Assembly: GCA_964016885.1 (NCBI GenBank)
Contig: OZ024741.1
Coordinates: 319,424,001-319,488,000, forward strand
Source of the DNA: Eledone cirrhosa
Taxonomy: Eukaryota
Length of the DNA: 64,000 nucleotides
Direction: 5' to 3'
Both the position numbers and the translations under genes were made by a program. Of the stretch, positions 43,317 to 47,776 are shown in pieces. The notes below the pieces were generated by a model. The model was not told the origin of the DNA and ran no database searches. It was given only the letters and a program-made list of their open reading frames with translations. Numbering within the stretch: the stretch's first letter is position 1; the number at the start of each line of letters is the position of its first letter.

Positions 43317-44447
43317 ATGAGCTGCAGCACAGTGGCGTCCAGTCCAGTTGCCAATATACCAGATGCAGTCACCCAGCGTACAATTCTGGAACAGTTTTTC
43401 GAACGGCGTTTTGTGGAGGGCGAGTTCTGGTACATCATCATTGCCGAATGGCTGGAGCAATTGAAACGTTTCTTAGGCATGCAGACTCGAAAATTTTACC
43501 ATCAACAACGTGTGCAACCCGGACCGATCTTCACGCGTCGCGACTACGCCCACACAGTCGATGTGGTGCATGAGGACGCCTGGCGAATGCTGGTTCAATG
43601 GTACGGCGTGGCTGAAGGTCACAAACCGATGAAGTTGGTCGTCTACAACTACAGTCGCGCCCCCGACCTGGAACACAATCAGAATTCATTCAAAGTCATG
43701 CTGTGCAATGCTCAGATTGAAGACTTTCAAATCATGCGCTTCAGTAAAATGGAGAAAGTTGGTCATATCGAATGGAAAATTCGAGAACTATACATGATAC
43801 CTTCCGTCCAGAAAACCAGATTGTGGGCCAAAGCCGACTGCGACAGCGAGTGGCAGACTCTTTTCTTCAGAGATAAATCTATTGGTAAATGTCTAGAGAT
43901 TGATTCTGACTTCACCCGTCCTATCATCGCCCTGGAGATTTCTATTGGCGATAATGTGTGGAAGAACAATCCGGAGGGGACAGAAACAGTTGATACCCAA
44001 CCTTCGGGTCCTCTTTATCAACACAGTATTTTCGAAGATGTTACGAGTTCTTGGGAGGTCGATATTCATGATCAAATTGACAACCTCGGGAAAGACTTCA
44101 TGGAAAAATTACATTTGAATTTCAGTGCGTTTGTACAGCGTGCCAAAGACTATGTAGACATTCGGGAGAACCAGCTGCGAGATAGGGAGAGATTGGTGGC
44201 TGAACGAGAAACCAGTGTTGAGATGAGCACGGAGAAGGTTACTGAAAAGGAAGAAGAACTAGCTAAAGATCAACTAGCGATGAAGAAGAAAATGCAAGAT
44301 TTTGAGTCATATCAGAAATGTATTGAGAAAACATTCGCTGAAAAGGTTGAGAGCAAGGAAGAGTCGTTGAGATTAAAGATTGAGGAATTTGAGAAGAGTA
44401 AAAAGGAGTTCGAAGAAGAACAGGCGAGATTCCGCGATGAATTGAAA
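43317..44447 (+). CDS. Coding exon 1 of DUSP-UBL-coiled-coil-BTB protein (DUSP, UBL, coiled coil)
   Basis: Acceptor TTTGATTCCAG (43306), ATG 43317; [39 protein letters not shown] (DUSP); [26 protein letters not shown] (USP15-like UBL); E/K-rich heptads; donor AAA|GTAAGT, phase 0. Upstream exons possible. Confidence 0.85.
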
Positions 44448-44655
44448 GTAAGTTAATACATACATACATACATAGATGTATATATACATAAATTCATATA
44501 TACATAAATACCCATATATATATATATATATATGTGTGTGTGTGTGTGTATTTATGTATATATACACACACATATATATATATATATATGTATATATGTA
44601 TATATATGTATATATATATATATATATATATATGTATATATATATATATATATAT

Positions 44656-44855
44656 AGGCTTAAAAATGGAATGAAAATAAGAAGGCAAGAACGGGAGGGG
44701 AGTTTTCCTCATCAGTTGTCTACTGGGGGTCTCGGATGAAATATCTGAGACCTCCAGTAGACAACTGATGAGGAAAACTCCCCCTCTCCGTTTTGGCTTT
44801 CTTCTTATTCTCATTCCATTTTTAAGCCTAACTTAACACACCCATCCTATTCTCC
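44656..44855. mobile_element. Intronic palindromic mini-element (X'-X-Y)
   Basis: ~80-bp arms 44656-44735/44741-44829 after (TA)n, short tail. Confidence 0.65.
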
Positions 44856-45629
44856 ATACACGCGCACACACACACACACACACACACACACACACACACA
44901 CACACACACACACACACACACACACACACACACACACACACACACACACACACACATATATACTTATTGCTAAGGCAAACACCATATATGCATATATGCC
45001 TGTAGATAAGAAGACCATTTCACCCTAAAAATGCATAAAAAATAAGGAATCATCTCATACTGAAGGTATAAAATGTAAACCGTAACACCTGTAATGCCCA
45101 ATAAGTCTTTAACATGGGTAATAGTTGGCAGTAAGTTAACCCATGCCTTATAACGCCGAGTCGTCATATAAACTCACATATACTGTATTATAGAACCGAA
45201 TGTTCAACGGACTTATCTACACACGAATTTAGTTCACATCTTTTCGTTCATTCTTCTAGAATTACTTAAATATGAACCAGTAAAATTTACTTTGCCACCG
45301 CGATAAATGTGAGTACGTACCCCTATGTTAAAAATACTTAATAGTTTTTAACGGCCCAGTAGCTTCTATGACCCTTTCCATGGCACCCGAGACTGATAAG
45401 AGGAATGGGTAAGTTATCCCCAGATCTGAGACCTGGCCTGAATGTTTGCAATATTATGGACTCCACAAAATACACTCAAGGATCTCGTATTGGTGTTAAT
45501 ACAGGCGATAGATTAAGCCTACAAGAGGCTTAAAATGTATTGGTATAATATTTTATCTTGTACTTGTACAATCTGAGTTCAAATACTGCCGAGAACAAAT
45601 GTAACCTTTCATCTGTAGTAGTCCATATA

Positions 45630-45845
45630 TTGGCTTCTAATTTAGGCACAAACCAAAAATTTTGGGTGAGGGGAAAGTCGATTAAATCGACCCCTGTGTG
45701 TTACTGGTACTTTATTTTATCGACCCAGTGAGGATGAAAGGCAAAGCTAACCTCAGCAGGCTTTGAACTTAGAACGTAAAACGCCGTAACTATATGTCAC
45801 CAAGCATGTTGTCAGTCATTCTACCGATACACTACCAATCTTCCA
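45630..45845 (-). mobile_element. tRNA-SINE in intron
   Basis: Reverse-complement core. Confidence 0.75.
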
Positions 45846-46184
45846 TCTTAGTAATAGTTCATATATTAAAGAATAATAATATATTTGAGATGAAGTCAAA
45901 TGACTTGTATATGTCTTCCCTGTAAACATTATGTTAGTGAATAACCAAAAGAAATGTATTCTTTAAATATAAAGTAATAGTTTCGAATATAGCGGTAGAC
46001 GTATCTATCAATACCAATTATTATATATTGTCATGGGTTCAGAATTAAACAAGTGGTTTTTAAGTCTTATTTTATTTGTCGTCCACTTTCGAGCAAATAA
46101 ATATATTTTGGCAAATCTTGGGAATAAATTTAAAAATGTATAGAAAAAAGTGTATATATATATATATATATATATATATATATA

Positions 46185-46507
46185 TCACGATAAATTAACG
46201 GAGGTATAGGCCCTCGCTACTCCCTGTAAATAATGTGCTCAAAGGAGAAGAGATCCTGAGCTCTTTAAAATACAATATGTTGAAAAGGTAACACACCAGA
46301 GAGAGATATACAGTGCGTTATCAATAAAACAGGGAAAAAACCCACCAGTGTCTGGAATCTATAACCTATGAAAGGCAGACTATAGACACGATAATTAAAA
46401 ATATAAATTAAAGCGTAAATAAATACCTCTATAACAATTTTTCCCTGTTTTATTGATAACGCACTGTATATCTCTCTCTGGTGTGTTACCTTTTCAACAT
46501 ATTGTAT
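46185..46507. mobile_element. Intronic fold-back mini-element (Y'-X'-spacer-X) in (TA)n
   Basis: ~68-bp inverted arms 46271-46339/46438-46507. Confidence 0.65.
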
Positions 46508-47350
46508 ATATATATATATATATATATATATATATATATATATATATATATATATGGAGAGAGAGAGAGAGAGAGAGAGAAGTAATTATTAACATTATTA
46601 ACTATTACTTTTTAAAACAATAAATGAAGCATAGTTTTCAAGGTTTTGTATTTAGAATTTCAGTTCGTAATATGAACACGTTAAAGTGAATATGAATCCT
46701 TCATAGTGGAACGGAGATAAATACCCCAGAGACTGAGAAACAGATTCTATTGTTGATTAAGCTCAATTGTTTCTCATAGTAAACAACTCGGAAAAAGATG
46801 AGCTTTACAACACAGACCAGTCTTGAAACTCTAAACGGAGAGTAATTTTTAATGTAGTGATCCAAAACCACATTAAAATTATAACACATAAATAAAAAGT
46901 GAGAGTGAGAGCAAGCTAACATTTAAATAATTTAAAAGAGCAGTTTGCCTGTGATTCTATATAAAATCGTACAAAGAGATTCTTGATTGTTCTTTAACAT
47001 TTCACACAACATTTCACACAACATTCTTTAACATTTCACATTGATGAAGCCTTACGCGGTCATACAACATATAGAAGTGGCAGCTAAATACCCTCAAAAT
47101 TAGCTTTCGGCCTTAAAAAATAAAGGGCATGTAAAAAATGCAGTCATAGATATATAAAATAAAACATGATAGGCACAGATGGAATGGCATTGACTATATG
47201 TCTTGCTAGCCAGTGATGACATGGGGTTAAACAATACATCATATTAAGGCGAAATTTTCTTTGAGGAGCCATTGACTTATTAAATGTTGTTTCTATCCAT
47301 ATGTGTTTATATATTTCCTCACTCACCATATTTCTATCTCTCTTCTTTAG

Positions 47351-47776
47351 CGTATGGCCGAAATGAACAAAATCCAAGACAACCGAATAAAACTAGACAT
47401 CGGTGGAATTCAGTTTACCACGTCGCTGCTTACTCTTAGGAAAGATATGACATCGATGTTGGCAGCTATGTTTAGCGGACGCCATCTTATCAAAACAGAA
47501 AACGACGGTAGTTATTTCATCGACCGTGATGGCACTCATTTCCGGTACATTTTGAACTACTTGAGAGACGGTGGTTTGAAAGAAGGAACCCTACCGATGA
47601 CAAACGAAACTGCACTCAAAGAACTTCTTATTGAAGCCGAATACTATCAATTGATTGATCTCATAGATTGTCTCCAGAATATTCTACAGAAGAAAGAAGA
47701 CAAAGATACAAATGAAAAAGAAACGGAGAATGTGAAAGACGAAGAAAAAGAAAAAGAAACTGAAACTATTGGATAA
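47351..47776 (+). CDS. Coding exon 2: KCTD-type BTB/POZ (T1) domain with acidic tail
   Basis: Polypyrimidine acceptor TCTTCTTTAG|CGT, phase 0 matching exon 1; IKLDIGG..FTTSLLTLRK..SMLAAMFSGRH..DGSYFIDRDGTHFRYILNYLRDG..LLIEAEYYQL. Confidence 0.9.
   Translation, partial: RMAEMNKIQDNRIKLDIGGIQFTTSLLTLRKDMTSMLAAMFSGRHLIKTENDGSYFIDRDGTHFRYILNYLRDGGLKEGTLPMTNETALKELLIEAEYYQLIDLIDCLQNILQKKEDKDTNEKETENVKDEEKEKETETIG

Follow-up and report, generated by a model that had tools for sequence, protein, structure and literature searches.

A protease-less DUSP-UBL protein with a C-terminal KCTD-type BTB domain in Eledone cirrhosa, a candidate Cullin-3 adaptor

A 64,000-nucleotide stretch of the 3.0-Gb Eledone cirrhosa assembly GCA_964016885.1 (contig OZ024741.1, here C2, 319.42–319.49 Mb), called the window below, contains a gene whose product joins a DUSP and ubiquitin-like (UBL) module of the kind found in the deubiquitinases (DUBs) USP4 and USP15 to a long helical stalk and a C-terminal KCTD-type BTB domain. 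We regard the gene as an undescribed, conserved variant of the KCTD-type Cullin-3 (Cul3) adaptor, shuffled together from known parts, and infer that its product is probably a substrate adaptor of a Cul3 ubiquitin ligase for a new ligand. The first-pass annotation of this DNA had proposed a fusion of DUSP-UBL and BTB without a protease and had not recognised it as a characterised family. Pfam profiles for DUSP, Ubiquitin_3 and BTB_2 match the protein and that for the catalytic UCH domain does not; the architecture occurs among database entries with automatically assigned names, and open-access full texts and bioRxiv, supplements aside, yielded no account of DUSP-UBL-BTB or TRIM-DUSP-UBL proteins.

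Results

Domain architecture

All features of the gene lie on the forward strand, and positions are those of the window. The DUSP domain (43359–43643) is matched by Pfam DUSP at E 1.3e-6, with a score of 29.2 bits marginally below the cut-off of 29.3, and by Foldseek to 4a3p at E 1.6e-16. It is followed by a linker hairpin (43632–43697), which has three residues fewer than that of USP4/15 and is devoid of the G[LM]FVKH motif, and by a USP4/15-type UBL domain (43677–43970; Pfam Ubiquitin_3, E 1.7e-5, above cut-off) with the signature K-[VI]-G-[HY]-[IV]-E. When the DUSP-UBL module was compared with the sequences in the PDB, all 13 matches at E up to 1 were to USP15, USP4 or USP11 (best E 4e-15), at an identity to USP4/15 of only about 25%. 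The DUSP was weak in an initial full-length AlphaFold2 (AF2) model (mean pLDDT 67) and was raised by a deeper alignment; the AF2 model of the DUSP-UBL module from a 97-row alignment reaches a pLDDT of 92 and a pTM of 0.75, and its fold is that of the USP15 DUSP-UBL (Foldseek E 1.6e-16) and of USP4 (5ctr_C; VIA Z 14.3, rmsd 4.3, 186 aligned residues). The protein thus shares with USP4, USP15 and USP11 the tandem DUSP-UBL, by sequence as well as by fold, and differs from them in having no catalytic domain, no hairpin for binding SART3, low identity, and a module encoded by a single exon.

The helical stalk (44052–44447) comprises about 135 amino acids, 50% of them charged; its first half is conserved (HDQID...NFxxFVQRAK) and its second half variable. 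In the full-length AF2 model of the Octopus vulgaris protein the stalk is a single helix (residues 312–446), separated from the BTB by a stretch of low confidence that could act as a hinge. The first-pass annotation had called this region a coiled coil; the hydrophobic periodicity (0.2 at 3.5, 2.4 at 3.6) gives only a weak heptad signal, and we therefore use the more neutral term helical stalk in place of a classical heptad coiled coil. Between the end of the UBL and the BTB, most molluscs have 168–169 residues and most rows of the paralogue groups have 136, with a range of 130–194 over 85 rows.

The BTB domain (about 47387–47690; residues about 456–556 of 584) is of the T1 type. It is matched by Pfam BTB_2 at E 1.3e-20, its closest solved structure is KCTD7 (8i79, E 5.7e-22), followed by KCTD10 and KCTD13, and KCTD1, KCTD15 and KCTD16 score far weaker in the same PDB search (E about 1e-11 to 5e-10). 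A tree of BTB domains (48 rows by 112 columns, no named KCTD7 included) is unresolved, with 4 of 45 branches starred. As the first-pass annotation had remarked, the BTB is C-terminal, unlike that of classical KCTDs; it is followed by an unconserved, acidic 28-residue tail and no KCTD C-terminal domain. Non-canonical KCTDs lacking the latter domain are on record (PMC10856315, section 2.3.7). The protein therefore resembles KCTD7, KCTD10 and KCTD13 in its T1-type BTB, its retained Cul3-contact residues and the same predicted Cul3 interface (see below), and departs from them in that the BTB stands behind the stalk and the putative ligand-binding part is the N-terminal DUSP-UBL. The database label 'KCTD7' of the O. 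vulgaris protein derives from the BTB alone.

Gene structure and transcript evidence

The protein is encoded by three exons. Coding exon 1 (35928–36115) begins with an ATG, comprises 62 Ser/Gly/Pro-rich codons and ends in a phase-2 donor (TTC AG/GTAATC). It was assigned by homology (tblastn with the O. vulgaris protein), by its splice signals, and by RNA contigs of relatives that begin their alignment at a shared CAG, 43304. A stop lies in frame 9 nt upstream of the ATG, 58 of the 62 residues are identical to the O. vulgaris protein (P0003), and the pLDDT is below 50; the product is likely a disordered N-terminus. Coding exon 2 (43307–44447, 1141 nt) encodes the DUSP, linker, UBL, conserved helix and charged stalk, between an acceptor (TTGATTCCAG) that ends at 43306 and is compatible with the phase-2 donor of exon 1, and a GTAAGT donor. 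The phase-0 GT-AG intron that follows (44448–47350, 2903 nt) contains microsatellites and a SINE-like repeat, and coding exon 3 (47351–47776) supplies the BTB, the acidic tail and the stop. The three exons (188 + 1141 + 426 nt) yield 584 amino acids, 554 of which are identical, without gaps, to the O. vulgaris protein, the closest named homologue, which exon 2 alone matches at 94%.

The first-pass annotation had joined exons 2 and 3 at 44447/47351 into an open reading frame (ORF) of about 518 residues. The splice is in phase and free of stops, and it is bridged by transcript contigs. In each of four runs, from four studies of four related species whose sequences share about 87% identity with the window, and with RNA status as guessed by the tool, exon 2 is spanned by a single contig (2.8–3.8 kb) that covers 43304–44442 and picks up at 47351 after exactly 5 letters, skipping the intron; since this step equals the length of the repeat-masked 44443–44447, the contigs bridge the junction, which is missing from the joint table of the alignment tool. 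The coordinates and the uninterrupted frame of the two-exon model likewise hold (ATG at 43317, GTAAGT donor after 44447, acceptor with polypyrimidine tract and AG ending at 47350, stop at 47776, 518 residues, sole stop terminal), but that model is incomplete at its 5' end. The 66 residues that the longer model adds are of low complexity and unconserved across molluscs, and in some relatives the second Met is taken as the start, so that both start codons may be in use. Among the 40 substitutions displayed (264 rows in total), 34 fall at third codon positions, with 36 codon changes being synonymous and 2 altering the residue; judged by its sequence, the gene is evolving under purifying selection.

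Separation from USP genes

The absence of a USP catalytic exon, anticipated by the first-pass annotation, holds for the protein, the window and the 150 kb downstream. Seven USP queries against the window and these 150 kb match exon 2 only and recover no catalytic exon, and of the 97 UCH matches in the genome the closest lies about 8 Mb from the locus. Contig C17 carries an intact USP4/15 gene, complete with Cys box, His box and GMFVKH linker. The DUSP-UBL search of the genome returned a single match, the gene itself, as a lower bound from an exon-wise search. The module is confined to one exon in the fusion and spread over at least four in the host USP4/15 gene, and the single-exon form may have arisen by retroposition or intron loss.

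Family, conservation and origin

A search with exon 2 within a length window of 207–660 residues, which excludes full-length USPs, gave 57 homologues. Species names are attached to 23 of them, all from molluscs (cephalopod, gastropods and bivalves); 32 of the 57 carry BTB_2 in the same chain, and many others stop at the same exon boundary. The ESM Atlas holds a 50-member cluster named 'DUSP domain-containing protein', mainly from molluscs, and a profile search adds the annelid Owenia, the brachiopod Lingula and divergent groups of the same layout. The homologue and profile searches returned no named vertebrate or arthropod protein of this layout; being word-based, they leave absence unproven. 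A search of the octopus genome with P0072 recovered no member of paralogue groups B, C and D; its nine matches are the window gene and unrelated BTBs (again exon-wise and a lower bound). In addition, a full DUSP-UBL-BTB protein labelled Siedleckia nematoides (P0226) groups with the Owenia protein; it presumably comes from the parasite's worm host in the transcriptome.

Conservation over 29 full-length rows is 0.80 for the DUSP, 0.85 for the linker, 0.72 for the UBL and 0.80 for the BTB, compared with 0.72 for the helix after the UBL, 0.51 for the distal stalk and 0.27 and 0.19 for the two ends. The DUSP, linker and UBL are thus about as conserved as the BTB, which indicates that the head is under selection.

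In trees of DUSP-UBL (a 67-row quick tree, and a 27-row subset tree with bootstrap not fully settled), the mollusc, annelid and brachiopod proteins and the divergent groups unite against USPs and other fusions (100/99 in the 27-row tree). A DUSP-UBL-BTB protein of the hemichordate Saccoglossus (XP_006813504) adjoins this group with support of only 50/9, and a single origin is thereby neither shown nor rejected by the trees. The motif G[HYF] in the UBL is present in 85 of 85 DUSP-UBL-BTB rows, redundant cluster members counted, and in none of nine DUSP-UBL-UCH rows, with a similar Gly in a few other DUSP-UBL fusions; an NFxxFVxxAK stretch at the base of the stalk is common to the DUSP-UBL-BTB proteins. 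Together, these shared features favour one origin.

Predicted docking on Cullin-3

Seven KCTD7 residues that contact Cul3 are named in PMC10856315; such contacts lie in the alpha2-beta3 loop and the alpha4-alpha5 hairpin of the BTB. With positions set by spacing on the KCTD7 alignment from the PDB search, six are identical in the octopus protein (M76, M80, R84, H85, D98 and Y131) and D74 is replaced by Thr. Of 50 full-length rows of the family, all have M80 and D98, 48 have R84 and 46 have M76. ESMFold2 prediction of the BTB with the Cul3 N-terminus (1:1) scored 0.86 in three runs, against 0.01 for the best of three controls, with a contact agreement of at least 97% and a partner pLDDT of at least 88. 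The predicted complex recovers the published pairs F54–M80, R59–D98, D121–H85/R84 and Y62–Y131. Among microbial pairs, the score mark was attained by 51 of 78 solved and 2 of 108 mismatched cases, and among eukaryotic pairs by 39 of 65 and 2 of 126. A Cul3 encoded on a metagenome contig, which shares 97% identity with the octopus Cul3 exon over 67 residues, stood in for the octopus partner. The BTB is thus predicted to dock on Cul3 helices H2 and H5 in the manner of KCTD7, through the canonical interface, which lends model-based support to the Cul3 adaptor suggested in the first-pass annotation.

Partner surfaces of the DUSP-UBL head

The length and composition of the GLFVKH hairpin, the best-defined surface through which USP4/15 contact a partner, determine SART3 binding, and the USP11 loop, three residues shorter, does not bind (PMC4914101). 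The linker of the window gene has 22 residues compared with 25 in USP4/15, and the hairpin tip is gone. The motif G[LM]FVKH occurs in none of 84 DUSP-UBL-BTB rows and in three of nine DUSP-UBL-UCH rows. This loss argues against a decoy and against reuse of SART3 as partner, and the low identity to USP4/15, combined with tight conservation among orthologues, fits new partners. A precedent for such re-surfacing is the USP11 paralogue, which evolved a UBL pocket of its own (PMC6333900).

Related fusions and cassettes

In a representative library, 68 of 88 DUSP-UBL matches were scanned, and these comprise nine proteins with UCH, nine with BTB, including that of Saccoglossus, nine with RING (mostly of TRIM type) and single cases with PRY-SPRY, SINA, PARP-WWE and kinase domains. 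DUSP-UBL occupies the C-terminal slot of TRIM gene models from Saccoglossus, Ptychodera, Branchiostoma and two Pelobates species, a slot that is normally substrate-binding in TRIM ligases, and in a Lymnaea gene model two DUSP-UBL copies are placed before the RING. Other fusions involve a PARP12-like WWE-PARP in a crinoid and a kinase in Montipora, and the named examples include corals; several catalytic-less fusions are entered in databases as 'USP15' or 'ubiquitinyl hydrolase', for example, although they have no UCH domain. All of these non-BTB fusions are gene models with unverified splicing. The TRIM and RING models resemble the window gene in joining a catalytic-less DUSP-UBL to a ubiquitin-ligase module, and differ from it in using RING instead of BTB-Cul3 and in a DUSP-UBL that is much nearer to USP4/15. 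The non-BTB fusions are scattered among USPs in poorly resolved trees, a scatter that would fit repeated capture of DUSP-UBL.

The same helical stalk and 'MLAAMFSGRH' BTB cassette is also found in KCTD6-like and FIP2-like proteins of cnidarians, sponges and molluscs, which are largely uncharacterised and carry pentapeptide-repeat, TLDc or Zn-ribbon-like modules and no DUSP-UBL. A second stalk-BTB gene of E. cirrhosa (contig C7, 25,196,700–25,205,210) encodes a KCTD7-like BTB, the closest other BTB in the genome, with a Zn-ribbon-like CxxCGDxLQNSxExGxHLCD motif; no DUSP-UBL was found within 60 kb of it. In many molluscs it has relatives with an N-terminus rich in Pro, Gln and Gly and with BTB_2 as their sole annotated domain, and the gene looks like a member of another uncharacterised adaptor family. 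Tandem stalk-BTB repeat proteins (P0062–P0066 and P0227–P0231) likewise lack DUSP-UBL, and their BTBs are close to those of the DUSP-UBL-BTB family.

Mobile elements

The window is AT-rich animal DNA with abundant microsatellites. The SINE-like repeat in the intron (45570–45790) is of very high copy number and is matched by hundreds of related-species contigs; similar copies lie at about 35380–35780. Long ORFs at 14045–16090, 22490–23659 and 62819–63986 of the window combine reverse-transcriptase-like sequence with a GIY-YIG-like C-terminus and are, we assume, Penelope-type retroelements; the only Pfam match in the second is GIY-YIG at E 0.07, and the first has no clear match. A LINE fragment (30936–32615) has RVT_1 and zf-RVT matches in Pfam. 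Elsewhere in the genome, an intact 2230-residue Helitron ORF (Helitron_like_N, PIF1 helicase; L144, 402–7094, at 5.37 Mb of C5) ends in a USP-type UCH domain, and near-identical UCH matches occur in ORFs of 2230–2245 residues at several loci on many contigs. These near-identical copies point to a recently active transposon family with a deubiquitinase-like domain.

Discussion

In the mechanism we consider probable, DUSP-UBL heads that would have come from a USP4/15 copy were reshaped, the C-terminal BTB would dock on H2/H5 of Cul3, and the BTBs would oligomerise, probably into a pentamer by analogy with KCTD relatives. Such an oligomer could bring together several Cul3-Rbx1 arms and hold the stalks in a bundle, and the reshaped heads would bind a putative substrate, probably not SART3, which would then be ubiquitinated. 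That the stalk-BTB cassette carries other modules in related proteins is as expected of an adaptor chassis. Several points weigh against this proposal. The complex prediction used a stand-in Cul3 and a 1:1 instead of a 5:5 job, and since the KCTD7-Cul3 complex has already been solved, its passing shows likeness more than binding. KCTD14 clusters with KCTD7 and yet does not bind Cul3 (PMC10856315). Finally, the 135-residue helix, extended to about 20 nm, exits the BTB N-terminally, whereas the substrate domains of classical KCTDs are C-terminal.

It is on account of this stalk geometry, and the reach of Cul3-Rbx1-E2 to the heads, that we retain as an alternative, though a distinctly unlikely one, a tether or regulator that binds Cul3 and either fixes the Cullin-3 RING ligase (CRL3) at a site by way of the long-stalked DUSP-UBL or keeps Cul3 sequestered, with no ligand ubiquitinated. 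A long stalk of strongly conserved, ruler-like length and a head N-terminal to the BTB would suit such a role; the length, however, varies by more than 30 residues between groups, the AF2 model has a low-confidence break ahead of the BTB, and the TRIM-type fusions place DUSP-UBL in the usual substrate-binding slot. Still less probable, in our judgement, is a scaffold independent of Cul3, similar to KCTD1/12/15/16, in which the BTB merely multimerises the DUSP-UBL heads. Several KCTDs do not bind Cul3 (PMC10856315), and the contact positions are at the same time part of the BTB surface that is conserved, but the weaker scores of KCTD1/15/16 relative to KCTD7, the near-invariant contact loop and the passed Cul3 prediction speak for Cul3 binding. 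AlphaFold told Cul3 binders from non-binders in PMC10856315, and the program used here is a different one.

The suggestion of the first-pass annotation that the fusion reuses DUB surfaces, ubiquitinating USP4/15 or its clients or competing with the DUB, has lost ground, and we now consider it, together with trans-activation of the DUB, to be very unlikely. The module does derive from USP4/15, and the DUSP-UBL of USP4 acts in trans when isolated, binding the catalytic domain and activating it, with activation of USP4 reduced by R40E (PMC4243247); moreover, the Saccoglossus member retains a full-length hairpin (GVFSK). Against this stand the SART3 hairpin, lost in all 84 DUSP-UBL-BTB rows and kept in the host USP4/15, a linker as short as that of the non-binding USP11, and a Glu at the R40 position in 33 of 35 orthologue rows, the last being a weak point since nine true USP rows vary there as well. 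An artefact, in which unrelated genes are falsely spliced or the front of a USP gene has distant catalytic exons, is largely refuted and exceedingly improbable: no RNA run of E. cirrhosa itself was listed, and the bridging contigs do come from relatives with guessed RNA status, but the junction is bridged in every run, more than half of the homologues have the BTB in the same chain, and the USP queries, the distance to the nearest UCH match and the intact USP4/15 gene on C17 leave little room for a displaced protease.

Returning to the Cul3 substrate adaptor, the fusion bears on several questions. DUSP domains are said to occur only in USPs in PMC4243247; the fusion is a natural DUSP-UBL without a protease, contrary to that statement. 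The presence of a complete DUB beside the fusion in a single animal makes it possible to compare what DUSP-UBL surfaces recognise. As for physiology, the Aplysia orthologue LOC101855924, annotated as 'uncharacterized', is listed in PMC11488329 and its preprint as about 1.2-fold down in the L7 motor neuron after long-term versus short-term sensitisation training, the sole mention of a family member in the literature covered.

A bolder reading, which we put forward tentatively and hold to be rather unlikely as a whole, is that DUSP-UBL is a portable recognition module that animals have moved repeatedly from an eraser to writers of ubiquitin. One transfer, perhaps already in the bilaterian ancestor, would have been to a Cul3 BTB adaptor that was retained in molluscs, annelids, brachiopods and a hemichordate and diversified into several paralogue groups; separate ones would have been to TRIM, RING and SINA ligases. 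This view would make the present gene the most ancient representative of a ligase class that has escaped notice, whose members recognise DUB-type surfaces and counteract or circumvent USP4/15 signalling. More immediately, the gene would represent an uncharacterised family of CRL3-type adaptors of spiralian animals, found once in the octopus genome so far.

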